From Anthoceros angustus (Eukaryota > Plantae > Anthocerotophyta), in contig MU008181.1 in NCBI GenBank assembly GCA_010909165.1, positions 868,001-932,000 on the forward strand: a DNA stretch of 64,000 bases. The letters are read 5' to 3'. Under the pieces are notes generated by a model, which had not been told where the DNA came from, made no database searches, and saw nothing but the letters and a program-made list of their open reading frames with translations. Positions 12,626-37,559 of the stretch are shown one piece after another. The position numbers were made by a program, and so were the translations under genes. Positions within the stretch are counted from its first letter, which is position 1. Each line of letters starts with the position of its first letter.

Positions 12626-12966
12626 TCTCTTCGTCGTCATTTTGTTCCCGAAGCACCTAATCCTACTACGAATTACCAACTCAAAAATAAAGATTTCTCC
12701 AGCAAATGGGAGATTTCTATGGAATACCGATCTCGTCACACGGGAGTCTGTGTGTCACTTTCTTTCTTTTCGGTGTACGCTACGAGGATATGCCACGGAA
12801 TCTTTTCGATACTCACGTATAATACACGTATAATACGTGCCACATCACTTCACGGGGTTCGTCGGGAAAAACATTCTATCACACGTTCCTCGGCACGGTG
12901 TTCCGATGGTGTCATACGATGTTTTTGATGGCGGTGTTAGGGTTTTCATCGGGTCTACACACAAAC

Positions 12967-14420
12967 ATGGCGGGCAACACATACACACGAGAACTTTTGT
13001 TCGCGGTATGGCCGCGTTACGAGAAACCGCCGCAAATCCTCCGCTTACACATCACTTTCACTATATATGCGGGAAGGGCGGGATGTGGGGCGATCCCTAC
13101 GTTCGTGTGCTTGCCTACTAACATGCTTGTGTTGTGCTTGCAGTTGGATGTATGGGGCGACTTCGACGAGAAGATGATCGTAACTTCACCTTTCAAACCG
13201 AACATTGCCGAAGGAAACCATTGCAATGCGAGCATTACAGATCCGAACATGCTTCACACTATCCCCTCCTCAACCTCATCAAAGCAGGCAATGTCACTGC
13301 GTCCTACAAATCCACTTCCGGTCCTACGGACACAGGCGCATGCGCGTTCAACCAAAAACATCCGAACATAGTCTGCGCTCACACCTCATGGTGGGGCGCT
13401 CTACAAAAAAAACACCTCCCTCGCCCGCGATCGATCGCGGAAGAGCCTCGAGCGAGCCCTCCATCCTCTTGTGCTCGAACTTGGCTCCTCCTCTGGACTT
13501 AGTTCGCCCCTGTCTTTTCTTGGAGGCGAATGTCCCTCCGGACATGGGAGGTGCACCCGGTGTGCCATGGCGGGCAGTGCACCACTGTCCTGTGAGGTTG
13601 GGGAGGCGGGTTCATCCCGGCACCAATGGGAAGGGGACCCCGAACCGGAAGGCGTGGCGGGGGCGATTGCGGAGAGGGTGGCATCCACCACCAGAACCGC
13701 ACTTGCACATTGGCCCGATGGCATGGAGGATGCGGCCATTCTTTGCGTTCATGTATTCCATGAAGCGCGACCCGATAACATTCCAGGCTGCGTTGTCGGC
13801 CCGGCCGTGAGTCTGTCCATCACTCCCTCCATGTCGGTCGGTGGACCTCGGTTGCGCACCTTCTCCACCACTTCAAGAAGGAGGTGATGGCGCCCGTCAT
13901 GGCGGCGTCGATTACTGCATTGGACTTGGTTGCTACCATACTCGGAGCTCCATTGGGTGGATGCCCCACCTTGTTGCGGCCTTGGGCGGTGGCCCCTCCC
14001 AGGTCTGGCCCCATTCACGCCTCGGCGGCAGGGGTTCGCCTCCGGCACTCTCGCCTTGCATCTTGGCCTTCGCCCACGGCGCCCGCCCCGCTAGGTCTGC
14101 GCCCCCTGCACCTCTTCCTCTTCCGGGTGCCCGCTGCCTCGAGCTCAACGATGAGCTCGGCCAGCTCTTCTCTCTCGCCTTGCCTCCTCCGCCCGCCGCC
14201 GCCCGCCGGCCGTCATCCTCCGCTCGATCTTGGCGGCGCTCCACGTCCGTATAGCGGATGCGAGCGAAGTTCCGTTTTCGTAGATGACCACAGCAGGGCT
14301 GGTCTCGTCCACTCCGTCCACACCTGCAAACCCAACTCGCAGACATATGAGTACCAGGCATGGCAAAGTTCACCACTTGCAACCAGCATTACGAGGCATG
14401 ACAATGACAACTGAACCCAC
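12967..14420 (+). pseudogene. Putative spliced, degenerate gene just inside the left TIR (unknown product)
   Basis: ATG at 12967 (MAGNTYTRELLFA), donor GTATGG at 13006, branch-like CTAAC at 13118 and TTGCAG acceptor at 13143. The same frame continues to 13887 with one stop. Protein-like stretches occur in neighbouring frames (HLLHHFKKEVMAPVMAASITALDLVATILG). The 138-nt intron is itself open in frame, so splicing is not proven. Confidence 0.35.
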
Positions 14421-14769
14421 CAGCATTGTCAAACACATTGCAGTCACGGCGGATTGTGCGTGTTCACTTACCATCGGAGTCTTCCGATTGTTGTCCGGCT
14501 GGCCGCGCTCCCTCGCCCCCTTCGTTCGCAACCCAGTCCACGTCTCCATCGTCGTCCGCTGTGGGCGCCTCCTCTCCCTCCTCGGTTTCGTTCTCCTCCA
14601 CTCTCACCGGAAGCGCCCCCGGCACGGGCTCCTTCCCCGGCCTGGAGCCGCTTGCCCCACCATCCTCACTTCTGCCTCCGTCCCCACCTCCTCCGCCCTC
14701 GCCCCCCACGGGCACGTCCTGAGAAGGAGGCGCAAGGGATGCCTGGTCCTCCGTCCCGGCATGCGCCTC

Positions 14770-16700
14770 TGTGTTTGACCTCATTGGCGCAACCACATGG
14801 GTTGCGATCCTTGGCCGCCTTGCGGTTGGTGGGGCGCGAATGTCGGCTGCGGCTCGAAGGCTGCTGCGACCCTCGGCGCATGCGGCCGAGCCATCCCCTG
14901 CTGCAGCCATTGGCGGGCGCATGCGGCGAGCCACCCTCACTGCGGCCATTGGTGCTGCGATCGCCGATCCACCCCTTCCCCTACGGTGCGTCGGCTGCCG
15001 GCCGTCATCCTCCACTGCGGCCTCGGCGCATGCGGCAACCCGGCTGCTGCTGCGACCCTCGGTGTCTTCAGCGACCCTCATCTGCGGTCCGGGACTTCGG
15101 GCGCATGCAATCGCCTCTGCGCCCTCCGTGTTTGGGCGGGCGATGCCCGCCCGCCGCCACCGCCTCCGCCCGCCGCCACCGCCTCGCCTTGGCGCAACCA
15201 CATGGGTTGCGATCCTTGGCCCCGGCCGCTTGTTGCCCCAGGTGGCACGCCACAGGCTGCGGAGGGCTCCACCAAAGCGGCGGCATCGGGATGCCGCCTC
15301 CGCCCGCCAACCGGCCCCTCACTTTCTGCATGCTCGTCCGTGGGGCTCTTCAAGCATTACTGCAGCCCTCGCCGCCGCCCGCCGCCACCGCCTCCGCCCG
15401 CCGCCACCGCCTCCGCTGCCGCGGGCGAGCGATTGCCGCCCGCCCGCCCGCCGCATCGGCCATTTCCTCATCGTCGCCACCGCCTCCGCCCGCCCGCCCG
15501 CCGCCATGCCTTCCGGTCGCCTCCCTCCTCCGTCCCGGCCGACATGGGTGTGTCGAGCTCCATGTCTTCCACCTCGCCGCCGCCCATATCGCAAAACGCC
15601 TATGCTCGTGAGCTTCCACTTTGAAAAGTGGCACTTGGAGTTCAGTGAAGAGCGCCCCAACTTGCGCCTATAAATAGGAAGAAACGTCCTTGGCCGCAAC
15701 CACATGGTATGCATGCTTTCGGTGGCATTTGGCACCCCAATGCATCACCGTTGCCACCGGTAGCGGCTGTTTGGCGCTTCGCGCCAGCTGCGGCTGCGGC
15801 TCGAAGGCTGCGACCCTCGGCGCATGCGGCCGAGCCATCCCCACGCTGCGACCATTGGCGGGCGCATGCGGCGAGCCACCCTCACTGCGGCCATTGGTGG
15901 CTGCGGTCGGCCGATCCACCCCTTCCCCTACGGCGGCGCAGCTGCCGGCCGTCATCCTCCACTGCGGCCCTGGCGCATGCGCAACCCGGCTGCTGCGACC
16001 CTCGGTGTCTTGCCTTCCGGTCGCCTCCCTCCTCGGTTTCGTTCTCCTCCACTGCGGCCATTGGCGGGCGCATGCGCCTCGCCTTGCCGCCTCCGTGTTT
16101 GGGCGGGCGAAGCCGGCGACCATCCGCTGCCGCCACCGCCTCGCCTTGGCGCAACCACATGGGTTGCGATCCTTGGCCCCGGCCGCTTGTTGGGGCGCCC
16201 CAGGTGGCACAGGCTGCGGAGGGCTCCACCAAAGCGGCGGCATCGGGATGCCGCCCTCCATCGCGGACCACCGAGCCCTCACTTTCTGCATGCTCGTCCG
16301 TGGGGCTCTTCAAGCATTACTGCCGGCCGTCATCCTCCGCCCGCCGCCGCCACCGCCTCGCGCTGCTCGGCTGCCGCCGGGCGAGCGATTGCCGCCCGCC
16401 GGCCATTTCCTCATCGTCGCCACCGCCACAGCGATGCGCTCCAGATGCCCGGCCGCCATGCCTTCCGGTCGCCTCCCTCCTCCGTCCCGGCGCGACATGG
16501 GTGTGTCGAGCTCCATGTCCTCCACCTCGCCGCCGCCCGCCCATATCGCAAAACGCCTATGCTCGTGAGCTTCCACTTTGAAAAGTGGCACTTGGAGTTC
16601 TTGGTGAAGAGCTGCCCCAACTGCTGCCCTGTATGCATGCTTTTGGCATTTGGCACCCCAATGCATCACCGTTGCCACGGTAGCGGCTGTTTGGCGCTTC
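14770..16700 (+). repeat. ~960-bp GC-rich tandem duplication with internal sub-duplications
   Basis: Anchor ACTTTCTGCATGCTCGTCCGTGGGGCTCTTCAAGCATTACTGC at 15321 and 16281. Anchor CATATCGCAAAACGCCTATGCTCGTGAGCTTCCACTTTGAAAAGTGGCACTTGGAGTTC at 15585 and 16542. Confidence 0.9.
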
Positions 16701-16899
16701 GCGCCAGCTGCGGTGCTGCTATTCGATTTCAACACCACGGCGGTTCGCCACGCATGTTGCCACCGCTTTCGATTCATTGCGGTTCCAACCTTCTAAGCGT
16801 ACTTGCTTGGGTCCGGACGATCGTTGACCGCTAGTCAACCTACCACTTCCGCCTTTTCCGATGTGTTCGCCATCTATCCATGGCATCTACGGTACTTGC

Positions 16900-17960
16900 C
16901 TTTTCCACCTTGCGCCTATAAATAGGAAGAAAAGTCCTTCGCATTTGGACCAATGTCACATGTGCATTGCCTATGGATGGCATCCACATGGTATGTATGC
17001 ATGATGGCTGGTTGTCATGTGATGCATGAACATTTGTACCTAGATCTTTGTGCCATGGCACAATCCATGTATGTGCACCGTCATGCATGTCGGGAAGGGT
17101 ACCATGCCACATATAAAGGTCACGTGCGATATAGAGAAGACATAAAAATCAAAACCCAAGGAAAAGGTGCCCACGACACGGCATCTACGTAGACATGGTC
17201 ACATGCATCACACATCAACGGGCATCATGCATACATACCATGTGCATGTGCATCGTGATATATGTTGACGCGGTACTCGACACATACATCGTCAGCGAAT
17301 CTATATAGAAAAGACCTAAAAATCAAAACCCAAGGAAAATGTGCACATGGAAAGCACATGGTATGCATGCATGCGGGATGGATGGTTGACATGTGAAGTA
17401 TGTGAACATGTATACCTAGATGCTCATCATGGGCACCTTTTCCATCTATGTGCATCGTGATGCATGTTCGGTACTATGACACATATATAGGTCAGCGCAT
17501 CTATATTCAAACTACGTAAACACCATAACCCAAGGAAAAGGGCGAGTACGTTCTTCAGTGCATGAATATCAATTGTTCGAAGGCCAAGGACAAGTGGGAT
17601 TACAAATATACCTAACGCCTACCATCGGTGGTGGCACTCCATCAACAGTTCCGGTTTTTTTTGCCTATATGTGGGCTACCCAACCATGGACTACCAACTA
17701 CACGCTACTTGCCTATCCCCGCCCTACCTATATATAGGAAGAAACGTCCTTGGCCCCTTGGCCTTTGGACCACGTCATGTGGTGTATGTGAACATGTCTA
17801 CCTAGATGTTGTGTCATGGCACAATCAACCTATGTGCATCGCGATGTTTGTAAGGCACAAGTACTCGACACATATATAGGTCACCGCACCTATATAGAAA
17901 ATACCTGAAAATCATAAACCAAGGAAAAGGGCTAGTAGGTTGTTAAGCGCATAAATATCA
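16900..17960 (-). repeat. Left block of ~175-bp CATG-rich satellite (inverted relative to 26.4-28.45 kb)
   Basis: AACC(C)AAGGAAAA anchors at ~17153, 17327, 17527 and 17918. Positions 17521-17595 are the near reverse complement of ~26478-26555. Confidence 0.85.
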
Positions 17961-18749
17961 TTTGTTCAAAGGCCAAGGAGAAGTAGGACTCTAAATAGAT
18001 CCATGCCTACCATCGGTCTGGTGGTGCTTCATCGAGAGTCCCGGTGGTTTTGCCTATATATGTGGGCTACCCAACCTATGATTCTTCGATTGTACATGTT
18101 TGTCATAAAGGATAGGCAGCCATACTTAGTCCCTTCTTTTCTCTTTTCCCTCTTCTCACCTTTGGGAACCGCATTGTCTAGTGGGACCGTCGGTTCGTTG
18201 TCTTTATCATGTGCGCACCTATGCAGCCCTGCTCATGACTAAGCGGTCGCAATGGTCGCATAGGTACTTCGTTTCATTTGGTGATTCTCGGTTTGGTCCA
18301 AAGGCCAAGGTCTTCCTTCCATTCATTGATTGACATATTGGTGCAAAGGCCAAGGAGTTTTGTTCCCTTCATTGCCAATGTGAAAGCTCCAAAGGCCAAT
18401 GAGTATTTTCCCTTTCATGGTCGGGATGGTCCAAAGGGGAAGGCCTTGTCTTCGTATATATAGGCAGGCAGGGCAGGATAGGCAAGTACCGTGTAGTTGG
18501 GAAATGGAGTTTCTTCCTACACATGAATCGGACCTTACATTCGGACCATTTGTCAATCCAGGATTACATTTTAGTCCTTGGCCTTTGGACGTCAACCAGA
18601 AAATATCATGTCATGTACTAGTCGTCGGCGTAAGGCCGAATGACGAAAACAAGTGATGTTGTTTTCGTCATTGGGCCAAACATAGACTAGTTCGACATGT
18701 CTGACGAAAACGAAACACCAAGTCGGTGTGCTTTGGACCACTGACCACT

Positions 18750-21700
18750 ACAGGCAGGCAAATTCGTCAGTAGGCTTTGGACCGATTACAATTCACTGCG
18801 ACAGTCATGCCCCTTCCTACCGCCATTCCACAACCACTCTTCCACTCGCGATCGCGGCCATTGCTATTATGAGCAGCCGCCATCGCCACCCTGTGCAAGT
18901 TCACCGCTATGCCTCCGGTGATTGCGGCGATGCGCAATAAAAATGCACCTCCTTTGGAGGCCATTCCTGCGCCTCTCGCCTCCCAGTCCGTCGCCGCCCC
19001 TCCACTGCACATTCGAAGGACCTTCCTCCCACCGCATAAGGCAGCGACGGATGGTGTGCGGCGTGCGAGTGGGCTCACCCATCGATGATGCACCAAAGCG
19101 CCTTCCCTCCGCATCCGCGGCTGCGCTGCATCCCGTCTTCCACACGTCAAACTCCTCGGCGTCATGCCCGGCACCTCACCGGCACGGAATGCGATGGCCC
19201 AAACCTCGCTTTGTCTCATCGGCGAGCGCACGCGTGACCGCACTTCCGTCGCACACTTCTGCGGTTGTCTTCTTCCGGTGACGTCGCGCTCGCATCCGAT
19301 GTCAGCAAAAACTTTGAGCTGTCCACCCTCGGATTGTCGCAATGACAACCTTGCTCGGCGGTAGCACCACCCTCGCGATCGCCATGCGTGCGGTGCACGC
19401 TCCACTGGAAGACCTTCCGCCTCCAAAACCTCCCCACCTCTTTCCATTTGCCCATTGTGATTGTCGGGCGCGGCCGATTGGAACCTCGGCGACTTAGTTC
19501 CGCCATTCGACCGCCGCCCGCCAACCCTACGGTTTCCGTATTATTCCGCCCGACCTTGTTTACATCCATTCTCAATTGGTGACGGAAAGCAAATCACGTC
19601 GGGAACTGGCCGTCTGTTCCACATGGGTGCAGTTGCCTCCATTTTCCGTATCCGGCCATCGCAAACCAAGAAGTGAGTGCGGACAGGCTCAAAGTCTCTT
19701 CACATTACTGCCCTCTTGTGCGGGGGCCAGGACAAACACAACTTCTGAAAACCACTTGCCAGTGTCTAATGAAACGCAGGTCCGACTCCGAGGCCGGCCT
19801 TTCAAGCGTTCCCATACACGGAGTTCATGCGGATGGCTTCTATCACCCGCGTGGCCATCACGAGCTTGGACATAGGCGGGAGGAGAGTGCGAGCACGTCC
19901 TCGCGAGGCGGTGCCCAAACGCCCGGAGGGGAGCTTGCCTGACCACCATTGGCATCGCCCGAAGTAAACTCGTGATGAAGGTGAACAGGCGCGCTCTATC
20001 GCCAAATGACATCTCTCGGCGATTTCACGAACATTTCTCTAAAGCTGCGGCAAGCCTCGAATCTCACTCACTCGAGGCCGTCGCCTGCATCCATGCGTGG
20101 CGGTGAAGAACTTGGTGACACTCTCAAACGTGCACTCCCTAGACACTCCAACATGGCCCTCTTGTCCAGTGCACCACATGCCGAACCCTCTCCCACCCAC
20201 CCGCGTGCGGGCACCGGTGAATAAAAGCGGTCCTGCACCTTCTTCCGAATCGCGCCACCGCCGCCCGGGACATGCGAGGGCTTGGTCGGCCACATGCTTG
20301 AAAAATCCGGGAGCATGCGCCATCGGACCAACGGCCGATGAAATCGCCTCCTCTTCGCCCGCCGAGCCCGCGTTTGATTCTTGGAGGATGGCCATCAGTG
20401 GGTGGGTTGTCAACATATCCGTCTTAAAAGCCCTCTTCAACGTCCTCTCTGTGCCCGCATCCTTCCACTCCTTGTGCACGCCATCCTTTTGGCTCCCTAG
20501 TGCGTCTTGAGTGTGGCAAATGTCATGGGACGACTCACCTCAATGCCATTTGCCAGCATGTAAGCGGTGGCGAAGAACATGGCACACAAGGAGGCATCTG
20601 TCCGTGCACATTTTGCATCAATTGGACACCAAATATCTTACCATGTTGCTGTAGGGGTCGGATGCACTCATGGGCGATGTGGTAATGTGTAGCACAGCGT
20701 TGCGTTCGAACACGCCGTCCACAAATGACGGCGACTCAGTACTTCCGAGCCTCGGCGATGCCGTCGCGTAGGCGCACCTCCTGTTCCAACCTCGTGGACT
20801 ACATCACCACATGCCGGAACCCTCTCCCACCCACCCGCGTGCGGGCACCGGTGAATAAAAGCTGGTCCTGCACCTTCTTCCGAATCGCGCCACCGCCGCC
20901 CGGGACATCACGAGGGCTTGGTCGGCCACATGCTTGAAAAATCCGGGAGCACATGCGCCATCGGACCAACGGCCGATGAAATCGCGGCTTCTGCTCCTCT
21001 TACCAGGGCGTTTGATTCTTGGAGGATGGCCATGGTGTGGGTGGGTTGTCAACATATCCGTCTTAAAAGCCCTCTTCAACGTCCTCTCTGTGCCCGCATC
21101 CTTCCACTCCTTGTGCACGCCATCCTTTTGGCTCCCTAGTGCGTGCGCGAGTGTGGCAAATGTCATGGGACGACTCACCTCAATGCCATTTGCCAGCATG
21201 TAAGCGGTGGTCAAGAACATGGCTGCACACAAGGAGGCATCTGCCGTCGTCGGCCGCACATTTTGCATCAATTGACAAATATCTTACCATGTTTTGTAGG
21301 GGTCGGATGCACTCATGGGCGATGTGGTAATGTGTAGCACCGCGAACGTTGCGTTCGAACACGCCGTCCACAAATGACGGCGACTCAGTACTTCTCGTGA
21401 TGCACCGTCGCGTCTGCATCCTTGTTCCAACCTCGTGGACTACATCACCATGTCCCGTGCAGTGCGATCGCACTCTAAGCGGTGGGAAAGGTCCCCCTCC
21501 GGCCCGGTCGAAATTGTCGAACAGTTGTTGGCACTCCATGCCCGCCTCAACCTGCAATCACCAATGCTGTCGTCGTTACCGAACCCCATCGAGGCACCAC
21601 AGCCAGCTGCAAATAATGGCATGTACGGCCGCTCACCTGGAGGGTTAGGAGGTCCTCGAATCGCCGCTCCTGCTCCGTTCGGACGGCATACAGAGCCTTC

Positions 21701-24700
21701 TCGGTCCAAAGCCATCGCAGCATGTGCGGCATCGTCGCTCCCTGCGCGGAATGCCATAAGCGCGCGTCTGGCGTCCTTTCCTCCGCCTTCCTCGGTGCTG
21801 CCCTGCAGGCGACCCAAGTCACGGTGGGCTGCGGTGCGATCGCATCTCCTCCTCATCCATCGCGAACCTCAAGTTGGTGCTATTCGCGTTCTCGCAACTC
21901 TTCCGCCGTCATGGATCGAAGGTCGGTCGTCCATATCCGCGAGAAGGCGGACCAGCCCGGCGGTGGAGGCCCTGCGTCGCGAAGAACCTCGGATGGTGGC
22001 GGTCGAACATTTCCAGCCGTCCATGCCTTGCACCATCGGATGCGAGCCCTTCGCCGAGTTCGTACTGCGCCGTCTCCACAAGATGTTGCAGCCTTGCAAG
22101 AGCAGCCGCACCCGCATCGGTTTCGCAGTCCGCCATTGCCGCCTTCTCCTGCAACTGACCCAAAATTTCGAAGAAAAGAATCTCCTCTGGCGATGGCCTG
22201 CCGGATTCACCCCCGGCCGCACGCGCCTTCCCTTCCCCAACCTGCGGTGGTGTGTGCCGGAGCTCTTCCACAACTAAAAAGGTCCGTTGCCATGCCGTTA
22301 GCGAGCCTCTTCCGCTCGCCGCGAGGCGCTTCCATGAGCAGGCGTGCGCGGCCCGTCCGCGCCGCCCGGGACTTCTGCGCCCGCCTCGTGCGGCGGGCCC
22401 TACCGCAGCTGGCGCGCTTGTTGGCCTAGGGGAGAGGAAATTGTGCCTCCTCCCCACATGTCCCGAGGGTCGAGGCAGGTGGGATGCAGGCGGGTGCCTC
22501 CAAGGTCAGGGGATGCCGGACAGTCGACGGCGTTGTTGAACTCTCCCTCCAGAGCGCGACCACGACCACCGCCTGCCAGCGCCCCGCTCTCCATCCCATC
22601 GCTGGTGACATCCACTTCTTCCTCCTCCGGCACCCAATCGTAAACCTCCGAAGGGCGGACGCCCGCTCGCTCCCTGTACCTCCGCAGCTGCAGAGGTGTA
22701 AATTGCCTGTTCACGTCCCAGATGTACAGCATTTGCATCGGCTGTCGGCTCTGTGTGTGTTGTCTTTAGAAATTGGGCGAGAATGTCGCCGATACACGGA
22801 CTTGTGTGTCGCGGCCGGCGGCATCACGGACCAGCGGCCGGACCAGGCGCGGCTGTCGAATAGAGCCTCGCACCCCTCAACAATGGGCCACCCCACGGCG
22901 TTGTTGAACTCTCCTCCGAGCCACGACCACCGCGCCAACGCCCGCTCTCCATCCCATCCCCGGGTGACATCCACTTCTTCCTCCTCCGCACCCAATCGTA
23001 AACCTCCGGGCGGCGACGCCCGCCTCGCACTCCGCACCGCAGAGGTGTAAATTGCCTCGCTCACGCCCCGGATGTACAGATTTGCATCACCCAAGACTCG
23101 GACGTCGGCCGGGGAATTGGACAGAATGTCGCCGATACACGGACTTGTGTGCGGAGCTCTTCCACAACTAAAAGGTCCGTTGCCATGCCGTTAGCCTAGG
23201 GGAGAGGAAATTGTCGAATAGAGCCTCGCACCCCTCAACAATGGCGCACACCGTCCTCGGCAACGCTGCGCTGTCGCCCAGCATGCCGAGCACCGTAGCT
23301 CCACTGCGTGGTCGGCGGACACGAAGACAACACCGCCTTCTCCATCTCCCAAGTCGACCTTGGGCAAAGCCTTGTCCAGCGGTACTTGTACCCGCAACAG
23401 CTTTGTGAGCCAACGCCCGCCTCCGCCATCCCCGACGGTGCGCCCGCAGCTCTTTTGCTTCTTCCGCGGGCCTATACCCGGCAGGCCGTGATTCCGGAGC
23501 TGCATGAATGGGATTGTCCCAACGGCCGCCCGGAGGGAGGCGGCCTCTGGCTCACCTGCGCGCGCCGTCTCCATCCTCCCACCAGTCTGGCGGGCAGCGG
23601 ATTCCGTAGATGATCCGCCCACCCATTCTCCGGCATATGTGGATGGGCCACCTGGGACGCCCACGTTGAACCTCCGAGCAGATCCGACGATGGCAGCTTG
23701 GGCGGCGGCGATGGCGGTGCGCGCCGATATTGGCATCGCGCGCCGTGAAGAGTGCGCCCGCCTCCGGGCGCAATTGCGCCCGGCTCGGCGCGAGCGGCGG
23801 CGATGGCGGCGTCGGTAAAAGGCCGCATCCGTGAGGGGCGGGCGGATCGGATGACCTTACATGGGGCATATTCTTGGCGATCATTCTGCGTCTTCTGCCC
23901 GCGTCAGAAAGAATTGTGTGCCCACAATTTCTTCCTCTGCTGCCCGTTGGTTGAAGGTGCAATGCTCACGTTGTCTTCCGAAAGACGCCATGGTGCTGTG
24001 GAAGACCCGCGCTCTTTGCTTCTTCCTCCTCCGGCGATGGCGGGCGCCTCGATGTGTGGGACGCAGACGCGCTTGTGGAAGGAGATCGATGGCGGTGATG
24101 CACGCAAGCATTGCGTGGCGTTGAAGTGAGTGGGTCGCAGCCAAGCTGAAATCATTGTCCATATTCTCCGTGGCCCGCCATACGACATAATCTTTGACGC
24201 GGCGGCCTCGCTCACTGCGCGCCGTCTCCATCCTCCCACCATCGGCGGGCGGATTGCGTAGATGATCCGCCCACCCATTCTCCGCCATATGTGGATGGGC
24301 CACAGGGCGACCACGTTGAACCTCGGCGGTCCGGCGATGGCGGCTTGGGCGTAGCGGGGCTCGCAGCCGATATTGGCATCGCGCCGTGAAGAGTGCGCCC
24401 GCCTCCGCCATCCCGCCCGCCTCCGAGCGCGACCACGTTGAACCTCCGGCGATGGCGGGCGGATCGATGGCGGTGCGCCGCCTCGCATCCGTGAGGCGAG
24501 GGCGGATCGAGATGACCTTACATGGGGCATATTCTTGGCGATCATGGTTCCTTCCCACCGCGTGGTGTGTGCCCACAATTTCTTCTCGTCGCTGCCGGTT
24601 GAGAGGTGCTGCTCACGTTGTCTTCCGAAAGACGCCATGGTGCTGTGTGGAAGACCCGCTGCGCCGCCTCCGCCATATTCTATGCACCATCGGCGGGCGC

Positions 24701-25900
24701 CTCGATGTGTGGGGCGCAGCGCTTGTGGAAGCGGATCGATGGCGGTGATGCACGCAAGCATTGCGCCCGTTGAAGTGAGTGGGTCGCAGCCAAGGAAAAG
24801 CAATCATTCGATATTCCTGCGTGGCCCGACATAATCTTTGACGCGCGGCATGTGTACATTGATTATGGGATGTGGCCGTGCGGTTGCGGTAAGTTTTGGC
24901 TCACGATATGCGTGCTTGCGCATTGCGGCTATGTGGCTGCAAACTCTCCACACGTTGCAACGCGCCCCATCTTGCAGCGATGCATCTGCGGCCAAGCCAC
25001 TCAACACCCTCATCGCGTTGCCGCATCCTTCCTCTCCGCTTTGGTTCGAGGACATGACATAGTGGATCGCCGGCGTTTGACTTTCCGGCCGCCAAACATG
25101 CCACCGTGGTCCGGCGATCATGGTTCCTTCCGTCACACTTGCGAAGATGCTGTACACAGATGTGTCCCAATAACATATTGGGTCCGATATGTTCCGGAAT
25201 AAACTATTGGGTGGGAAAGTGCAAATGATGCGCTATCACTGCGCCGCCTCCGAGCATTGGTGTCCGGACCGCACACGAATTTTTTGACGTTGTGGAAACA
25301 ATTCATTGTGCCCTTGCTTATTCAAATGCAATTGGCATCCGATGTCCATGGCTGCGTTGCGAGGAGGTCGACAACCGTGGTGGGAGGTTGTTTTGGAGGC
25401 GAGAAAGGCATTGCCGGTGTGCCGTGCGCCCTTGCACAACCATCCGGGACATCCTACCGCCATCATGCCTTTTAGGCATCCGCCATATTCTATGCACCAT
25501 CGGCTATGCATTAATATCCCCTTCCGTAGTCCGCGCCATATTCTGCGATCAGCTCATGAAGTCCATCCCATATTGCTTGCCATAAAATCCGTGACCATGG
25601 CCCATATTGGCGCCAACGCGACCATCGCACTTCACATTTTCGATGGCATGGTTGCCTTGGCCTTCCGCCTCATGGAGATTTGTCTGGTCACTCCCACATC
25701 CTCCCATCCCCGTCCTCCCGCCCTTACGGCCCGCTCCACGGACGGTAGTCTCGAGAGCCCGCGCCATCCACGGAGGCAGGGGCTGCCCGCGGCCGGCCCG
25801 CCGCCCCACCCCGGCCGGCCCCACCACCCCCAACCGCCGCCCCACCCCAACCAGCCCCAACCCGCCCCAACCCACAGCGCACCCCACCCAACAAACCAAA
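18750..25900 (-). pseudogene. Frameshifted, internally duplicated coding-like block in the centre of the giant element (unknown product or products)
   Basis: Protein-like minus-strand segments: SRILWQAIWDGLHELIAEYGADYGRG, RVKDYVVWRATENMDNDF, GRIIYGIRCPPDWWEDG, TVCAIVEGCEALFD, EEILFFEILGQLQEKAAMADCE, VFERNVRGATHYHIAHECIRP, HKEWKDAGTERTLKRAFKTDMLTTHP, LPPMSKLVMATRVIEAIRMNSVYG. Several recur in 370-660-bp duplicated units. Confidence 0.5.
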
Positions 25901-26439
25901 AGCCGAAATCACCACGACCAACAATGCCTAAAATGCGAATACCTACAATGTACCGCCTGCAAAATGCCTAAACGGCTAAATTTGATACAATGCCTTACAT
26001 TGGTGAAATGCATAACATGCGAAAAGGCAATTGCAGTTGAATGTGCAATTGGACGAGGTTGAATGTGCAATGGACGGCGACACGCCATATAACACAATGC
26101 ACTTGCGGTTCTATAGCGAGGATAGCGTTGCGGGGCTTGCCTCCCTGACTCCCCTCGAATGACAATGATGTGAAGGAGGTGCATATTCGTATATGAACAC
26201 ATGAACAATGGTCCTTGCCAAGACCAAGGAAGCAATGCATTTGACCAGGCCGATCAAGTTGGTTGCCTAACGCACTAGATCCCAAAGGTCACAAGAGAGA
26301 AAGAAGACAAGGTGAAGGGCAAGTATGGATGCCTTCCATGCGGACAAACTTCTACAATCGAATGAATGGGTAGGGGGCCACATATATAGACATATGTGCT
26401 GTCAAGACCAAGGAAACAGGTTGAATCACGTGGCACCTC

Positions 26440-28450
26440 TCACCTGCTGGTAGGCACTATAGGTCTATTTAAAAACGTACTTGTCCTTGGCCTTCGAACA
26501 AATGATACGTATGCAGTAAACAACGTACTCGCCCTTTTCATTGGGTTATGTTGTTTCTGTATTCTGTATAAATATATTCGCAACACTACATATGTGTCAT
26601 GGTACGATGCCCCACATGCATCACGATGCACATGGATTCATTGTGGCATGACACAGCATCTACCTAGGCATGTTCACATACACCACCTGCCAACCATACA
26701 TCATGCGTACAGACCATGTGCATGCCATACATTGAATGCACAGGCCACATCACATGCACCTTGACCAAAGGACATGGCATATGGCAAGTGGTATGACAAC
26801 ATGTTAAGTCAAGACCAAGGAACACGTCCGCAAGGGTTGGACCGAGGCTCCCAGGAAAATGCGGATCCCAAAGACATAGAGAGAAAGAAGAGACCTTGTC
26901 GCCCTGAACCTCTGGCAAGTATGGATCGTTCCATGCGGACAAACTTACAATGGAATAATGAATGGGTAGGAAGCCACATATATAGACATGTTTCGGTAGC
27001 GTGGGTAGAAGACCAAAGGTTGAATCACGTGCCACCTCACACCGACGTGGACACTTTGGGTTTATTTATTATCATACTTGTCCTTGGCCTTGAACAAATG
27101 ATATGTATGCACTTACGCGTGCTTTTCCTTGGGTTATGGTGTTTAGGTTTTTCTATGTAGATGACCTATATATGTGTCATAGTACCGCTAACATGCTTCC
27201 GATGCAGATAGATGGATTGCGCCGACATCTAGGTAGACATGTTCACGTGCATCATGGAACCATGCATCATGCATACATACCATGCATGCCATGTGACCTT
27301 TTCCTTGGGTTATGGTGTTTAGGTTTTTCTATGTAGATCGATGACCTATATATGTGTGTACCATACATCATGCATAGATGGATTGCGCTATGAGGTGCAG
27401 ACATGTTCACGTGCATCACATGCAACCATGCATCATGCATACATACCATGTGCATGCCATGTGTACCTTTTCCTTGGGTTATGGTGTTTAGGTTTTTCTA
27501 TGTAGATCGATGACCTATATATGTGTCATACCGAACATGCTTCACGATGCGGATAGATGGATTGCGGCTGACACATCTAGAGACATGTTCACGTGCATCA
27601 CATGCAACCATGCATGATGCATACATACCATGTGCATGCCATGTGCACCTTTTCCTTGGGTTATGGTGTTTAGGTTTTTCTATGTAGATCGATGACCTAT
27701 ATATGTGTGTACCATACATATCACGATGCGGATAGATGGATTGCGTGACCGGAAATGAATAGACATGTGCATCACATGAACCATGCATGATGCATACATA
27801 CTGTGCATGCCATGTGTGCCTTTTCCTTGGGTTATGGTGTTTAGGCATGTAGATCGATGACCTATATATGTGTCATAGTACCGTGCGAACATGCTCACGA
27901 TGCGGATAGATGGATTGCGTGACACAAAGATGTAGGTAGACATGTTCCGTGCATCATGGGAACCATGCATGATGCATACATGCATGCCATGTGGGGTTAT
28001 GGTGTTTAGGCATGTAGATCGATGACCTATATGTGTCATAGTACCGCGTCAACATGCTCACGATGCAGATAGATGGATAGCGGGCATGAGTGAACATGTT
28101 CACGTGCATCACATGGGAACCATGCATGATGCGCATACCGTGCATGCCATGTGCCTTTTCCTTGGGTTATGGTGTTTAGGCATGTAGATCGATGACCTAT
28201 ATATGTGTCATAGTACCATGCATCACGATGCACAAAGATGGATTGCGCCATGACACGGCATCTAGGTGAACATGCTCACGATGCACATGGGAACCATGCA
28301 TGATGCATACACCATGTGCATGCCATGTGTGCCTTTTCCTTGGTTATGGTGTTTAGGCATGTTCACGTGCATCATGCAAAGTGCAGCGGCGCTACTTCAC
28401 GATGCACAAAGATGGATTGCGCCATGACACGGCATCTAGGTGAACATGTT
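26440..28450 (+). repeat. Right block of ~165-182-bp CATG-rich satellite, about 8 clear tandem copies plus degenerate copies
   Basis: TTTTCCTTGGGTTATGGTGTTTAGG anchors at ~27123, 27299, 27468, 27650, 27821, 27991 (partial), 28156 and 28334. Confidence 0.93.
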
Positions 28451-28769
28451 CACGGCGGTGCGAGTTGGTGTGCGAGGTGCCCACGCGTGGTCTGCCGGCG
28501 GTCAACCGTCGAGAGCGGAAGGGACGGTTGCCGGTGGGCTGGAAGGAAAGTGCATTGCACGTGCAAGGAAGGCGCGGTGGTGGCGATAGGTGCAAGGTGG
28601 GCAACGCGCCACGTGGAGGAGGATGAGGAACCCAAGATCGGCGGTGAGCGGAGGCGGCGGCCCGGTGGCGTGATGGTGCGGAGCGAGGCGGTTGCGCTTG
28701 AAGAGTGCCGCCGTGAAGGCACAAAATTGTAATGGTGGTTGCGGTTGGGAATGGCGTGATGGTGCGGAC

Positions 28770-30430
28770 GCGCATGTTTGCGGTCTGGCGAGCACGGCCA
28801 TGTGCGGAGGGGCGGCGGCGGCGGAGGAATGGGAGATGCAAAGCTCGCGGTACATTCTGCGTGGCCTATGGTTCCCATCAACTAATTGTAGAGTTCTTGC
28901 ATTTGTGGAGGACCATCAAAGCGTTATGCGCATAGAGGGCTATCGAGAAACTTGCCGTCTGTCGACTGCCGGAGGGGCGGATGGATGGAGTGGCGGTGGA
29001 CAAATTATCGCGAGAGCATACTGGTGAGTGCCACATTTTCATGCACCAAGTGTTCGGTTGGCGTCGGATGGAAGGTGGTGGAAGGAGGTGCGGCATGGAA
29101 GAGGTACCGGAAAGGAGAGGTGCCGTAAACTGGACGACCTCGGGTTTGGTTTTCCCATGTGCACGCATCGAGTGCCGCGACCATGTGAGAGGTGGCCATG
29201 AGGTATTATGAATTGGTTGATTTAAATGCGGTATGGAATGGAATGGAATGAGAGCGAGGCGTTGTTCGGGATATCAACCGCGACGGAGAACCATGTTATG
29301 GCGGTGGCGGGGATGCGAGTGAGGCGGTGGAAGCGAACCATGTGCGGAGGGGCGCGGGAAGGGCCGCATGAGGAATGGGAGATGCAAAGCTCGCGAGTAC
29401 ATTCTCGTGGCCTATGGTTCCCATCAACTACTGGAGTCTGTCGAGTTCTTGTCATTTGTGGAGGACCATCAAAGCGTTCTACAGAGGGCTACCGAGAAAC
29501 TTGCCGCCCAGACGACTGCACCGGCGAGGGACGGACCGGATGGAGTGACGGTGGACAAATTACTGCGAGAGCGCTTACCGACTGGTGGAGTGCCACATTT
29601 TCATGCACCAAGTGTTCGACAGTTGGCCGCCGTCGGAATGGAAGAGGTACCGGAAAGGAGAGCTGCCAGAAACTGTGGACGACCTTAGGATTTGGTTTTC
29701 CCAGGTGCACGCATCGAGTGCCACTGACCTTGTGGAGAGGTGGCCTATGAGGTATTATGAATTGGTCGATTTCGTGCGGTATGGAATGGAATGGAATGAG
29801 AAGGCGAGGCGTTGTTCGGGATATCAACCGCGACGGAGAACCATGTTATGGCGGTGGCGGGGATGCGAGTGAGGCGGTGGAAGCGAACCATGTGCGGAGG
29901 GGCGCAAGGGCCGTGAGGAATGGGAGATGCAAAGCTCGCGAGTACATTCTCGTGGCCTATGGTTCCCATCAACTACTGGAGTCTGTCGAGTTCTTGTCAT
30001 TTGTGGAGGACCATCAAAGCGTTCTACAGAGGGCTACCGAGAAACTTGCCGCCCAGACGACTGCACCGGCGAGGGACGGACCGGATGGAGTGGCGGTGGA
30101 CAAATTACTGCGAGAGAGCATACCGATTGGTGGAGTGCCACATTTTCATGCACCAAGTGTTCGACAGTTGGCCGCCGTCGGCATGGAAGAGGTACCGAAA
30201 AGGAGAGGTGCCAGAAACTGTGGACGACCTCAGGGTTTGGTTTTCCCATGTGCACGCATCGAGTGCCACTGACCATGTTGAGAGGTGGCCTATGAGGTAT
30301 TATGAATTGGTTGATTTCGTGCGGTATGGAGAAATGGAATGGAATGAGAAGACGAGAGCGTTGTTCCAGGATATCAACCGCGACGGAGAACCATGTTATG
30401 GCGGCGGTGGATGCGAGCGTGGCGAAGCGT
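28770..30430 (+). repeat. Triplicated ~545-bp coding-like module
   Basis: Anchor GAATGGGAGATGCAAAGCTCGCG at ~28827, 29373 and 29918. The third copy has a 170-aa open frame (29920-30432). Confidence 0.92.
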
Positions 30431-33400
30431 AACCATGCCGCCGTGAAGGCACAAAATTGTAATGTGGTTGCGGTTGGGAATGGCGTGATGGTGCGGGCGG
30501 AGGCGGCGTAATGGCGGCGGCGGAAGGTGCCTCGGTGGGCGGCGGCGGTGCGTGGTGCAGGTGCTAAGTTGCGGATCGTTATGCGTGTGCGGCGTGCGTG
30601 ATCGCACATTCAATGTTTGCTGAAAATTCACGGTGCGAAAGCGGGCACGGTGGCACGCATGGCATCGCAATTGCACACGCCGGGCGGAAGGTGCGGTGAC
30701 GCCGCCCTATGGCGCCACGTGCGGCGGCGGAATGTGCGAATGAAAGGCGGCGTAAGGCGGCTCGTGGGGATCTCACGATCCGTCGCGTGCAAGTGGACAT
30801 ATGATTCGTGCACATTGATACGCCATGATGGTGCGTTGAAGCGGAGGCGATGGAGGAGGTGCGGCGGCGGCGGAAGGAGCGTCGCGGAAGGGCGGGCGGG
30901 GCGCGGAGGAGGAGGTGGGGGCGCCATGGACAACCCAGATCGGCGGAAGGTGGTGTGGCCTGGCGCGTGGCGGGGATCAGCATGGCGCACCACCTTGGGA
31001 GGCGTTGACGTCGATATCGTGGAGGTGCACCAAGTGGCGGCAGAGGTGGTCGGCCGTGGCGATCGCATCTGCGTCGAGGCATGAATTCTCAAACCTCGCT
31101 ATTGATTGCGGTGGATTGCACCACGGCGTTCTCCATTGCCCACGGCCATGCTTGAGGCGGCGAAGGAGGCGTCTGACTCGCCGCCCACGACGCGGCGGCA
31201 CGGCCTCGGCGAAATGTGCAATGTGGCATCGTGCGAAATGTGGCATCCGTGCGAAATGTAAGCATTCGCGTCGGCGTCCTGTGGGGCCTCACAAGTCTTG
31301 TGTGTGCGGTGAGTATGATCCATTCGAGTTTGGCCCGGCCGAGGCGTGGGCGATGGGCAGCGTCGTCCTGCGCGGCGATGCAGGCGGCGAGGTGGAGGTG
31401 CGGGCGGCGGCGGAAGGTGGTGGAAGGGGCGGCGGCGGCGGCGGCGGCGGCGTCTGGTGAGGCGCGGAGGTTCGGTGGCGATTTGGTCATCGGCGGCGGT
31501 GGCGATTTGGTCATCGGCGGCGGCGGAGGCGGAACGCCGTCCGAAGGCGGCGAAGGAGGCGGCGGCACATGCGCGGCGGCGGTGGCGCGGAGGAGGCCGT
31601 GAAGCGGCGGTGGCTCGCGGAAGCTCGGGCGGCGGTGGGCGGGGAGTGGGAGAGCCCGGCAAATCCACTCCGACTCGCATGTGAGGCGTACATGCGGGAG
31701 GAGAAATGTGACGATCTTGGTCGGGAAATGGGTACTCATGGTATTGGAGGTTCAGCGTTGTCCGTGCACAAAGATTTCATTTTCTGTGGAAGGGGCAGTT
31801 GTGGCATGGAGGTGGGTTGGAGGTGGGTGAAGGTGCCTCGGTGGGTGCATCATGCGCATGGGCACGGAATCTTTGGAAACGCAAGGCGGCATGGCACGTT
31901 GGTGCCGTTGTGGATGCAATTGCGAAGAGGAGTTGCAATCTGCGTGCACGACCATCGAGATAGGAGCGCCCGTGACCATGCTCGTGAGAAGTCAATGGAG
32001 GCTTACGTGTGGGAGTTTTAGTCACGAGAGAAGGGCGCCTTTTTCGCAATCACCGTCGTTCGAAAGTGGAGGAAGCGGTTGGATGGCACCCTATGGTCGC
32101 AGTGGAGGGAATGATAGCGATGGATGTTGCAATCGAGAAGTGGAGTTGGAAGCTAGTGGTGAGGCGGTTGGGCGGAATGGGACGGCGTCACATGTGCGTG
32201 GACCGCCCGCGGCGATGGAACATGCGTGAGGCTCGTTTGCGGCGGTGGGGACATTGAGCATCCTCCCGAGTTGGATCAACACAATTTTTGTGGGCGGTCA
32301 TTGCCGTTCGTACAGACGGAGCATTTCATATGTTACTTGGACTTGAAGCGAGCGAAGAGGAGTATTCCAAACGGAAGCATGTGACACGATCATCGGCATG
32401 CCACACAATGGGGGTCGACGATACGCCCGATAGCTGGAAGATCCATGCCTTTTGTTGTGAGGGCCGTCGTGGAACCCTGCGCATTGAGGTAAGGCGGAGT
32501 TACATCGTTTGCGGGTTTGCGGCCAGCGGCAAAAGAAGGGAGAGGAGGCCGCCGACATTGTCGTGCTTTGTGAAATGGGCGACGAGCCGTGTATGCCGGC
32601 GAGCGGCCCATTGTAGATTGTTCAAGCGGGGTGTTTGGTGCGTCTGGTTTGGAAGTGTTCTGCAGTGCACTTGTTCGCACTTGAAACAATGAATGAAACG
32701 TGGAAGCGAAAGGAAACCGTGATAGCTGGGCGCTTCATACGAACTTCTGCAGGCGGTCTACATGCGGCGCGTCAGCGGTGTGCAACCCGCATAGCGCTTG
32801 CGCGGACCGTCCGTGGAACAAAATCGGAGTGGCAGCTAACGGCGAGCCGTCGAAACCCTTTGGCCGGACATGCCATTTCGGGCGAAAGTGTTAGGGAGGA
32901 TCGAAATCGGGCGGTGTGAGAGGTGCATTTGGGGTTTGAGCGGGAGGAAGGCGCATGGGCAAAAGCGCTCCATTTGGAGGAAGTAGGCGCGAGGTGGGTG
33001 TTGAGGCCACGACCCTTGCACCTTGGCCATCACGGGGCAAAACGTGAAGGGTGCCCATGGGCGGCGGTGGCGCGCGGCCTTGCAGGCGGAAGGAGAGAAG
33101 ATGGTGGGCAGCGCCCAGGGCATCGAGGACTTGGCGAAGCCCATCATCACGAGGACGGTGATCACTTGAGGCAATTCCGTGCGGCGGTGGGGATGAGGGC
33201 TGGAAGGTGGAGATGAAGGATGCATAGGAGGCGGGGTGCCGCTACACCATAAGCGTATGATTTGGCGGTGCGCACAGCGAGACCATTGAAAGGCCTACTG
33301 CGGGGCTGCGGCAGGCTGCAGTGGCGAGGCTCTGCACGCCCGGCACGGCATGGCGCGGGTGTATGGGAGGTTGTGGAGGAGGTGTGCAGCTGATTGCCAC

Positions 33401-34769
33401 GCACACACCCATCACCGCAGCGTGAATCTGGAATCTGATTAAATGCGGCTGGATGGAATCGAAATCCCAAGGAGGCGGGTCACGGCGCTGCGTTTGATGC
33501 GGCCGGAGCACATAACGCAGTCGGCGATCGCAGTCGATACACCAATCGACACCCATGTACATGTGGCATATGGATTGTAAGTGCGTGATAGGGGGGCTGC
33601 GATGTTCGCGGTTGCGTTGCATGGAAGAAGTGATTGCGGGAGTTGTGCAATCGGTGTGGTGCATGTTGCCTTGTCGCGACTTATGACAAGATGTACCAAT
33701 TCTACTTGAGTGCATGGGGCCATAGATGGGGCAACCCATTCGTCCACAGTTGGTCTTGGAGGATAACAAGCGGGGGCAGCGATTTTCAACGCCTATGTGG
33801 AAGCGGTGAGGAAGTTTGGGCATCGCGGATTCGGTCGGACTGTGAGCACAACCTAATAGGCGGATATGAACGGCGAGGCCAAGGGCACATGGAAGCAACT
33901 TCATCCGCGGCCCCTGTGCACAACCGTAAAAGTTAGGTGGTCTGCGTTTTCCTTATGCTGCAATGGCGTGGTGAAGTCGATGAATGCGGATTGTTGCGGA
34001 GGATTGAGCATTTGGCGGTCCTTGGGAGAGAAGTGGGCATTCCTCTACAAGGGTACATGATGGATATGGTGAGGAGCGGCTGGACATCACCAACCCACAG
34101 CACATCCATTCCTGCGTGACCTTCATGCCCACGATGAGGCGGAGCTCGGCGTTGGAGGCGGTATGGAATAGGCACGGGTGCGGAAGATCGAGCGGAGCGG
34201 GACATTCCGGCCATGTGCACGCTATCGCATTCAAGAAGAAGGTCGACTACAAGGGTGGGTGCACACCCGCATATGAGTGAGGAGGAGGGCGATGGCGAGG
34301 AGTTCGATGTGGTGGCCCTCGGTATGCACAAAACGTGGCCCCGAGATGCCACCACTCGGCGCATAAATTGCTTGGGGGTGAGCAAGCTGTTTGTCCATTT
34401 ATTTTATGCAGTTCTGACATTGTGGAGGGAGGAGGGCGATCGCCATATGTGCGAGCCGCGAGGCCCGATCGTATGGGCCCTTCTGCATGGGTTGTCGAGA
34501 AGCTGCAGATGGCGAGGACAATGCATATGCAAAGGGATTGCGGGACATGGACTTCCTCCGGACATGTATCGTGCACATGGCACTAACAACACTCTGCGAG
34601 TGCGGGGAGCACGAGGGGCGCATTGCCCGAATACCTCCACCCTGGGAGGCTGAAGCCACCCGTGGGCGTGGGCGGCCATCACCCTGCTGCGGTCTATGGT
34701 GCACGAGGTGTGAGGCGTGTGGCCCAGTTGCGGCCCTTGGAGTGAGCTAGGTGTGGGTGGAAAAAATTG

Positions 34770-34868
34770 ATTTGTCGCTCACCATGACACAGGGCGGTGA
34801 CATTTGTCGCTCACCATGACACAGGAGGCGGTGACATTTGTCGCTCACCATGACACAGGGCGGTGACA
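34770..34868. repeat. Subterminal 32-34-bp tandem repeat x3 (ATTTGTCGCTCACCATGACACAGGGCGGTGAC)
   Basis: Copies start at 34770, 34802 and 34836. Confidence 0.95.
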
Positions 34869-35580
34869 ATTTGGATTTGTTTGTTACGGCGTTTTGAGAG
34901 TTGAGCCCAGTGGTGGCTTTGTTGTGGTGCAATGTAAAGGCTGGTTACGAAGATGGTGTGCGCTTCTGCGCCGGGCACATGGCTGGCCCCTTGTGCGCCC
35001 AGCCTTGGATGGCTGCGATAGCCGGTAGCGCGGCGTACATGGCGCCTGCGCTATCGAGCGAAGGGCACTATGCCTTCGCGAGCATCTGGCCCTGTCTCCT
35101 CCTATCATCAAGCCACGGTAGCGGTTCGTGATGGCAAGCCCGGACAAGCGGCGGGCGAGATGGGGTCATGCGAATGGATGTCCGATGGCCCATGCCCTCC
35201 AGACTAAAAACTAAAACATTGTGTGTCACACAAAAAGATTCTCGACACCACATGCTTAGTGACGAGATCGGGACACGAGGCGGGCGCCAACGGCCGATGT
35301 CGTCAGTGTGCACGGAAGTTTTCCCGCCGTATGCGGCCGGAAAACTTCTTTGGTCACAATGGAAAAAAACCCTAAAGGGCCCGTGTGACGAGATCGGTAT
35401 TCCATAGATTTCACCGGCATATGCAGACGTCTTGATATATTAAGCTCTCTGCAAGTGACAAGTGTCTCGTTAATCCATTCATGCACGTCACTAATTAGAT
35501 GCAAGTGAAATACCACTACTTTTAATATTATTTTACTTATTCTATGAGGTGGAGGCGGGGCTTTGCCCCTGCTATGGTCT

Positions 35581-36570
35581 TCAGGCGTGCTTCTCTGGCC
35601 TCTTCTCAGCAGGGCGCGGCATCTTCGCCTTGCTCTTGTCAGGCTTTGGCTTTGATGAAGAAGCCTCCTTCTGGTGCGCTGGTTGCCGCACCTCTCCTTC
35701 CCGTTCCTCCTCATCATCTGGGGACAAAGGTGTCTCCCCTTCCATCACCCTCGGCAAGGACTCCTCCACCCTTGCTGTCTCCAATCTCCACTTATGCGAG
35801 CACTTCCTTTGTACGAGTGCACCAGGAAGGTGGAGAGATAGGACACCTGAAGCCCCTCCGTCAACAATGCCTCCCTATGTTGATGGCCTGATCGTACAAG
35901 ATGGTAGCCTAATCCACCTTCTTTCCACGGGACATCTCGTAGATATCAGCGGATGCGAATTCCCTAGGTAGGTCTTTCGCTGAGCACCGATTAGGCCAAG
36001 CCAAATCTTGGCCAAGAGGTTCCACTTCCTCTCCTTTAACAGGGACCCTCTCCAGCCATTTCGTTGAGTCCAAACCACCTCTAGAGAGTCGAGGAACTTA
36101 TCAAGCTCTACAGGCGCAATTCCTCCCGAGTTCTCGTCGGGGATGAGATACGTCTCCTGGAAGTGTTTGACAGTCCGAGCCCAGTCTAGTGGCTCCCCTC
36201 CCGTCTTTTCGCACTCATGCACCAGCAGAGGGCTGGCGTAGTGCCATCCTCGCGTCTCATAGAGCCACTCCATGCCCAGCTCTTTGGCATACTTGCGAAA
36301 AACTAACAAATCTCGCGGGGAGAAATTTGTATTGGTCGGCACTCCAAATCCCGTGCGACCTTCTTGCCCTTGGTTGGAGTGGGTTTCCCCCTTCCCCTTG
36401 GCTGAGCCTTGGATGATGATCGCTCGGATAAGCCAGAACCTGATCGGCGTGCAGGATCGACTGTGTTCAGGTGAGAAGGCGCGACGAGATCCAGATCTCA
36501 CTGGGACAAGGTCAAGTTTTTCTGGGAAGAGTAATAAAGAGGACTGATCGTGGAGCGTTGGAATTGTCAT
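35581..36570 (-). CDS. Unknown ORF(s), possibly an accessory (Athila/env-like) ORF of an LTR retroelement remnant
   Basis: A 231-aa ORF (35875-36570) includes DLLVFRKYAKELGMEWLYETRGWHYASPLLVHE, loosely like plant retrotransposon accessory ORFs. An acidic/basic tail frame follows (35581-35784). No gag or pol was recognised nearby. Confidence 0.35.
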
Positions 36571-37559
36571 GGTGAGATATATTGGGATTCGGGGCTTTCA
36601 GTGCCAGTATCTGATCAGCTTGGCGAGAATGAAGTGGAGTTCAAGATTTCAGCGTCATACAATTGGGGTAAGGTCGTCGAACGTGGGTGATGAGCAGCTC
36701 GTTTGTTTGGAAATGCAGGTAGACCATGGTGCCAGGGTCCAGCTCCCACCCATCGAAGTCGATCTCTTGGGATATCTAAGCCGGAACCTGGCAGGCGAGC
36801 AGGATCGGGTGTGGTGGTCATAGCGGCAGCGGCTGGGTTGGACTTGTAGTCCCAACGAATTGACAGAAGAGGCAGCAGAATGTGAAGCTATCCTGCCAAG
36901 GGCAGCCCGTCGCTGCCTCCTCCTCCTGCTGCTGCTGCATGGTCCGGGCTGGCCACCAAGCCCTCCAGGCCCCAGCCAGTCTCCAGGCTCACATCCCTGA
37001 TTATATACGGTGGCCACGATCTTGTGCAACCCGTGTGGGGGATCCGTACGCGTCTTAACGTTGTTGGAGCTTTCCAAAGTTCGTCTCGTTACGAGAAGAG
37101 AAGATTGGGGCAATCAATGAAGCAATTTTGATTCCCTACAAAACTGGTTCCCCGAAGTAGATGGTTCTACCATGTGAGAGCAGCAATGGCTTGTCCTAAG
37201 ATGGTGTGTTACCAAGTGTTGTTAGACGGCAGCCAGCTTTATAAAAGAATTCTTCACCACAGGACGAAGACTTTCCAGTTATAAGAGATGAGGCTACAGC
37301 TAGAGAGTTATTCCTTAGCAACCGAACCACATTCTTGTTGGCATTGACGTACCGAAATACTGTGGGAGCTTAGAGGAGGAGATCGACAAATGGGAACCTA
37401 GTGGGTGTGTGCTTTGTGTGTGTGTGTGTGTAATCTTACCAGGCTAAAGGATTTCACAACCAGCAGAACGTCACAGGATCAGCAGCAAACCCGAATGAAT
37501 TTAGCGTAGCAGGGCATGGGGCTGTTGGAAGCCCGTCGTCTCTCAGTACCATACAAGAA

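Follow-up and report, generated by a model that had tools for sequence, protein, structure and literature searches.

A 64-kb window of Anthoceros angustus DNA (contig MU008181.1, 868,001 to 932,000), to which all coordinates below refer, contains a 22,689-bp element (12718-35406) that an original prediction had described as a giant transposon of an undescribed lineage with an unrecognizable multigene cargo. Our analysis indicated that this element very probably belongs to the IS3EU/GingerRoot superfamily of DNA transposons. Its ends read TATGG...CCATA and thus fit the pattern TAYGG..CCRTA, it is flanked by a 6-bp target-site duplication (TSD), and it carries an rva_4-type DDE transposase sequence. 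TA..TA ends are a constant feature of published IS3EU families and a 6-bp TSD is the usual one; GingerRoot shares these features and forms one lineage with IS3EU at 99% bootstrap (PMC10045372). The fungal IS3EU elements have TAYGG..CCRTA termini and carry accessory genes (PMC12730594). The IS3EU-type TA ends and 6-bp TSD named in the original prediction match this signature (PMC10045372, PMC12730594). Taken as a whole, the explanation that we favor with good confidence is a long IS3EU/GingerRoot-type copy with a frameshifted transposase, likely inserted by cut and paste and likely garbled largely by long-read error.

The frameshift-aware search for a DDE/IS3-like integrase that the original prediction had proposed located an IS3EU/GingerRoot (rva_4-type) DDE transposase core at 33710-33964 on the plus strand. 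This match scored 48.6 bits across six frameshifts, and the next-best site in the window scored 28.0. The reversed and complemented sequences gave 25.3 and 30.9 bits, 12 local shuffles gave 26.2 bits or less, and none of 50 Markov nulls exceeded the match (best 32.9; Gumbel estimate 4e-6). A collinear C-terminal piece of the transposase followed at 34071-34175 (+), with 25.4 bits versus 19.8 for the best of 30 nulls. In a six-frame reading, the motifs of the DDE family appeared in order across changing frames at 33.7-34.2 kb, and contigs of a related organism (X3) matched the DDE region. A motif scan yielded 120 loci; core pieces were recovered from 90 of them, and the 78 that were long enough went into the profile. 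All 7 core-containing open reading frames (ORFs) scanned among the fetched loci were assigned to Pfam rva_4; furthermore, 8 of the 23 long fetched loci, corresponding to 7 distinct elements of one assembly, had TATGG ends and a 6-bp TSD. The exact terminal inverted repeats (TIRs) of the fetched superfamily relatives measured 19-169 bp. Judged from its sequence, the plus-strand coding-like block in the right part of the element (block C) ends in an IS3EU/GingerRoot-type DDE transposase remnant. Hence, the description of the cargo as unrecognizable no longer applies to the end of block C, whereas the two other blocks (A and B) and the upstream part of block C yielded no informative match in the searches.

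Both ends of the element were reproduced by direct comparison. The left TIR of 27 bp (12718-12744, +) begins with TATGG, the right TIR (35380-35406, -) is its exact reverse complement and finishes with CCATA, and the hexamer GATTTC is found at 12712-12717 and again at 35407-35412. The likeness of the TIRs ceases at base 28 and no longer imperfect match was found; the 27-bp TIR is the longest exact inverted repeat within the window. When TSD lengths of 2-12 bp were tried at the junctions, 6 bp alone matched. By a naive estimate, chance would produce the inverted repeat with a probability of approximately 1e-7 and the GATTTC duplication with approximately 2e-4. A 28-bp TIR with an ATTT duplication, which the original prediction had offered as an alternative, fits this single site equally well. 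Evidence on this point came from contigs of a sequencing run that agrees at approximately 99% with the window flanks (X2). Five of these contigs cease matching exactly before 12718 and continue into unlike sequence (agreement 0.5), and at 12756 the count is 7 X2 contigs. Because the loose ends lie exactly before 12718, an element end at TA with a 6-bp TSD is favored over the 28-bp reading. Because the contigs leave the element at this position into unlike flanks, the element has multiple sites; it belongs to a dispersed multicopy family, as observed in this one run, and the concern that the TIR might occur at the window site only did not materialize.

Several observations weigh against the superfamily assignment. 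The motif pattern from which the profile was seeded had been picked with the motifs of the window already in view. Plain hmmsearch gave an independent E-value of 3.6 and tblastn a best value of 0.04 for a transposase in the window, and both the Pfam scan and a homologue search with 34008-34277 missed it. The first two acidic catalytic positions (aspartate motifs) are readable, and a frameshift coincides with the position of the glutamate. No signal over null level was obtained in the element with the N-terminal third of the profile. On the supporting side, the remnant is by eye closest to the Selaginella row SL_GR-020 of the GingerRoot supplement (PMC6839031). The 6-bp TSD was read at the window site only, the other insertion sites being known from left-end junctions of X2. 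Furthermore, 77 intact GingerRoot copies are described from Selaginella lepidophylla, 72 with TA ends and 72 with a 6-bp TSD; their TIRs are 100-150 bp versus 27 bp here, and their lengths are 3.9-12.9 kb (gene fragments in 22) versus 22.7 kb, or 19.0 kb de-duplicated (PMC6839031).

Because TIR length and size differ from these values, the element was not assigned to the narrow S. lepidophylla GingerRoot families; it is a further member of the known superfamily outside them. The proposals of an undescribed lineage, and of an IS3EU signature not from plants, could not be maintained, as GingerRoot, which is of the same lineage as IS3EU, has been named (PMC6839031, PMC10045372) and is known from the clubmoss S. 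lepidophylla and from mosses (PMC6839031). Since GingerRoot has been described, a cargo-carrying transposon with a 6-bp TSD in a seed-free plant is already in print (PMC6839031). Three-gene IS3EU elements of 8-13 kb have been published in fungi, and the 15 rows considered, of the 27 IS3EU rows in Table S1 of that study, all give lengths of 8.3-12.9 kb (PMC12730594). Literature searches, with Repbase outside their scope, found no hornwort IS3EU/GingerRoot record in the excerpts available (including PMC10952607, PMC10741241, and bioRxiv 2021.09.26.461848) and no published element of this superfamily longer than 13 kb. Assignment to Ginger1 or Ginger2 was rejected, because these need TG..CA termini and the element has TA..TA.

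The interior of the element is scrambled, and the kind of damage was examined in its internal duplicates. Six internal duplicate pairs differed by 190 indel events versus 50 isolated substitutions (23 transitions, 5 CpG transitions), whereas four short duplicates outside the element differed by 44 substitutions and 3 indels. The observed/expected CpG ratio was 0.96-1.12 in the coding-like blocks, compared with 0.60-0.64 for flanking sequence and 0.43-0.80 for four ORFs of the host. Indel-rich differences are what an unevenly polished long-read assembly yields, and neutral decay of methylated DNA is expected to leave a pattern unlike an indel excess without CpG loss. Because the duplicates show that excess and the blocks no CpG loss, error was favored over decay, and the scrambling could, with somewhat better than even probability, be mainly uncorrected long-read error. 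Consistent with this, seven X2 flank pieces of the eight listed (approximately 4.1 kb; one divergent paralogue-like piece was left out) showed 9 substitutions and 23 gaps relative to the window. Three points count against an origin in error: a fifth repeat outside the element (coding, 11.5-12.1 kb) is itself indel-rich, with 34 substitutions and 13 indels; the pieces of the mosaic join at short shared words, which also suits real template switching; and the error is deduced from assembled sequence. X2 had no contigs at 13.8-14.8, 18.6-23.4, 23.9-25.8, 30.5-31.4, and 32.4-33.0 kb, which proves nothing, as low depth or filters may leave such holes, and was not used.

The same data bear on a possible but less favored explanation, in which a member of the same superfamily was really damaged, that is, a defective copy was reshaped by slippage and template switching during gap repair and then moved in trans. 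The coupling of exact ends with a broken transposase would be expected from such a copy, as would mosaic pieces connected at short shared words. Precedents are at hand as well, since trans-mobilization of a defective copy was reported for the IS3EU-related Styx (PMC10853768) and cargo-bearing GingerRoots are often without a DDE motif (PMC6839031). However, indels outnumber isolated substitutions by approximately 4:1, neither a transition or CpG bias nor CpG loss was found, which is unlike neutral decay, and the flanks too show indel-type differences from X2. Because the damage spectrum of the interior is that of long-read error, the suggestion in the original prediction that a dead copy was moved in trans is unproven.

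Between its ends, the element comprises three GC-rich, frameshifted coding-like blocks and two inverted satellite arms, and five tandem duplications contribute 3.7 kb, so that 18,989 bp are left once the tandem surplus is removed. To call strands, a codon model was used whose training set, seven ORFs from the flanks, is small. Block A (13200-16600), which has no Pfam match, contains a tandem duplicate of approximately 950 bp (14844-15790 and 15791-16720). In all six intervals between 13.2 and 16.8 kb the minus strand scored higher, in four of them with a lead of over 8 bits, and GC skew was negative as in block B; block A is thus probably read on the minus strand. Block B (18780-25700, -) would measure approximately 5.2 kb after removal of three tandem duplicates of 370-660 bp, and block C upstream of the transposase (28450-33400, +) includes three tandem units of approximately 545 bp (28798-30437), the third open for 171 codons (29917-30429). 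The left arm (16953-18194, -) is built of satellite units of approximately 175 bp, to which X2 contributed near-exact deep contigs, and the right arm with its satellite array (26280-28454, +) is inverted relative to it. Toward the right end lie a subterminal tandem repeat (32 bp × 3.2, 34770-34873) and an exact 13-bp copy of the TIR core (35259-35271, +). The layout given in the original prediction therefore stands for the satellite, the inverted satellite, the subterminal repeats, and the strands of blocks B and C, but not for block A, which had been placed on the plus strand and scores better on the minus. Block B has a 41-bp hairpin at its 3′ end (18612-18699), next to a second inverted pair at 18285-18601.

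The arms raise another explanation, namely that an approximately 11-kb GingerRoot was invaded by a separate element of approximately 11.5 kb with long inverted arms (16953-28454, including block B). We regard this nesting as rather unlikely. Block B is indeed bracketed by inverted arms, the length without the middle falls within the published GingerRoot range (PMC6839031), and one fetched locus (L061) attains 10.9 kb through nesting. Nevertheless, no terminal repeat with a TSD was found at the outer edges of the arms, the best 25 of 48 candidates being palindromes inside the arms. Among the loose ends listed, X2 contigs loop through the satellite, passing from 17541 back to 16977, and do not enter varied flanks. 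A TATA-like motif (copies at 15667, 16915, and 17727) that occurs in the left arm also heads block A and its duplicate, arguing against a separate origin of the arms. No MULE, CACTA, or hAT transposase gave a Pfam match among the scanned interior ORFs; a standard MULE or CACTA transposase was one of the outcomes that the original prediction had named as refuting it, and an rva_4-type core was found instead. Single-contig depth in X2 was 49-105 over the arms versus 5-9 over the flanks, and the summed depth of contigs near the element ends was also higher, which weakly suggests joint repetition of the ends and the arms.

Searches with the coding-like blocks returned no relatives. Pfam scanning of 199 of the 210 interior ORFs of at least 62 aa gave four weak matches, none at the cut-off, although frameshifts blind such a scan; the 11 ORFs omitted lie in the second copy of the block A duplicate. 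Likewise, 16 short read-through pieces had no Pfam match at the cut-off, and a homologue search with the third-unit frame of block C (29917-30429) found none. A single-sequence fold of that frame reached a predicted local distance difference test (pLDDT) score of 49. With the block B frame 20807-21283 (-), phmmer returned two matches, both repeat-protein artefacts; two block B pieces had 0 matches in a PDB sequence search, and an Atlas search gave nothing at 0.9 or above and no usable match. None of 503 ORFs of the fetched loci matched the element, and no similarity was found between the element and its own flanks or between the blocks. Two specific leads were also followed: a Ulp1/C48 protease in block B scored 13.0 bits against a background of approximately 21 with a one-sequence profile, a weak test that gave no support, and the motifs of an alpha-kinase were not found in the element in a look at motifs only.

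These negative results also concern the possibility of a new lineage of giant elements, either Polinton/Maverick-like or virus-like in some other way, which appears very improbable. A size of approximately 20 kb, a 6-bp TSD, several large blocks, and CpG-rich, foreign-looking DNA would suit such an element. Its ends, however, are TA..TA rather than AG-type, and its integrase-like gene is of the rva_4 type. Neither a polymerase nor an ATPase nor a capsid protein was matched in the 199 ORFs, which is weak evidence, since that scan also missed the transposase. The TIR was not found in the viral and metagenome contigs searched, nor was the DDE pattern in the viral contigs.

The flanking genes support the seed-free plant host claimed in the original prediction. 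By Pfam they include POP1, DUF1295, OTU1/2, DUF4149, a rhodanese-FSH1 fusion, and TCF25, and the OTU2 protein is closest to moss and liverwort proteins, its best named matches being Physcomitrium (75%), Calypogeia (75%), and Selaginella moellendorffii (71%). An exact look-up of the OTU2 protein returned no entry. In a 22-row tree that included 21 of the 120 listed matches, chosen by hand, OTU2 paired with one other protein, stood weakly beside mosses (87/76), and was not grouped with Selaginella; the host is probably not Selaginella. Together with long intronless ORFs and a large repeated family that we take to be pentatricopeptide repeat genes, this may point to a hornwort. An intronless 416-codon frame at 11183-12433 (+), with three diverged internal repeats and no Pfam match, is conserved in X3 and stops 285 bp before the insertion; within it, at 12425, lies a base of the window that both X2 and X3 lack, a further indel-type difference in favor of long-read error. 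The rhodanese-FSH1 fusion is an intact 632-codon ORF (41288-43183, -) joining UPF0176, rhodanese, and FSH1 serine-hydrolase domains.

Additional features were recorded to the right of the element and in the fetched loci. A broken minus-strand reading at 35500-37200 looks like a long interspersed nuclear element remnant, and contig depth in X3 and X5 was very high at 35.2-35.9 kb. The stretch 37560-38100 belongs to a very large family of repeats with more than 100 contigs per run, which we take to be pentatricopeptide repeat genes. An 18-bp tandem array of approximately 21 copies lies at 56853-57273 and a Copia gag ORF at 61477-62253. Among the fetched loci, L061:766-11651 has IS3EU ends around two rva_4 genes and a Copia element, and L053:8885-9367 is a HECT-domain fragment inside an IS3EU element. 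Three viral-collection contigs of approximately 121 kb (L121-L123) share one ORF with a C48-type protease motif (784-1830, -), which we presume to resemble a rhizobial or xanthomonad effector.

Under the favored explanation, a long IS3EU/GingerRoot-type copy, the DDE transposase would, as expected from its family, bind the TIRs and probably also the subterminal copy of the TIR core, excise the element, and join it to the target with a 6-bp stagger, after which host repair of the staggered cut would leave the 6-bp TSD. Two or three accessory genes may be carried, by analogy with fungal IS3EU: A and B on the minus strand and upstream C on the plus strand. The inverted satellite arms, which lie upstream of A and of C, would probably serve as promoter regions. 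Assembly could, somewhat more plausibly than not, have produced most of the frameshifts and part of the 3.7 kb of duplicates, in which case the true element may measure approximately 19 kb and could be intact. More tentatively, it might be an intact or near-intact master of approximately 19 kb, longer than the IS3EU/GingerRoot elements in the papers considered, in a bryophyte lineage (possibly hornworts) for which the searches found no record, with two or three large proteins of novel families behind mirror-image satellite promoter arms, with CpG-rich DNA suggesting recent horizontal arrival or methylation escape, and masked by assembly error. With this element, a known superfamily on which little work has been done gains a long member and probably also a host lineage. 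The case further illustrates that, through assembly error, a known transposase can pass for unknown cargo. Should the accessory blocks prove to be intact genes, they would be candidates for anti-silencing factors carried by a transposon, comparable to the TET/JBP genes of fungal IS3EU, and the absence of CpG loss would make this idea testable in a small plant genome.

Compared with known systems, the element shares with IS3EU several putative genes, including a transposase opposite an accessory gene, together with the TAYGG..CCRTA ends and 6-bp TSD (PMC10045372, PMC12730594). The fungal families considered, however, are shorter (8.3-12.9 kb), their TIRs exceed 30 bp, and their accessory genes are of the TET/JBP and alpha-kinase kinds, of which neither was detected here (PMC12730594). 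Polinton/Maverick elements resemble it in the 6-bp TSD, an integrase-like enzyme, and large size, but they have other termini and require pPolB, ATPase, and capsid genes, none of which was detected. Styx of Zymoseptoria is likewise IS3EU-derived, with a 6-bp TSD and co-opted extra coding sequences, and provides a precedent for mobility as well as for trans-mobilization; it differs in being fungal, 7.9 kb long, and of demonstrated activity (PMC10853768). With GingerRoot the element shares a seed-free host, TA..TA ends, a 6-bp TSD, an integrase-related DDE transposase with equal motif order, and the carriage of cargo, which is large and unmatched here and consists of short host-gene fragments in GingerRoot; its distance to a host ORF is 285 bp, in contrast to GingerRoots, which tend to lie away from genes (PMC6839031).

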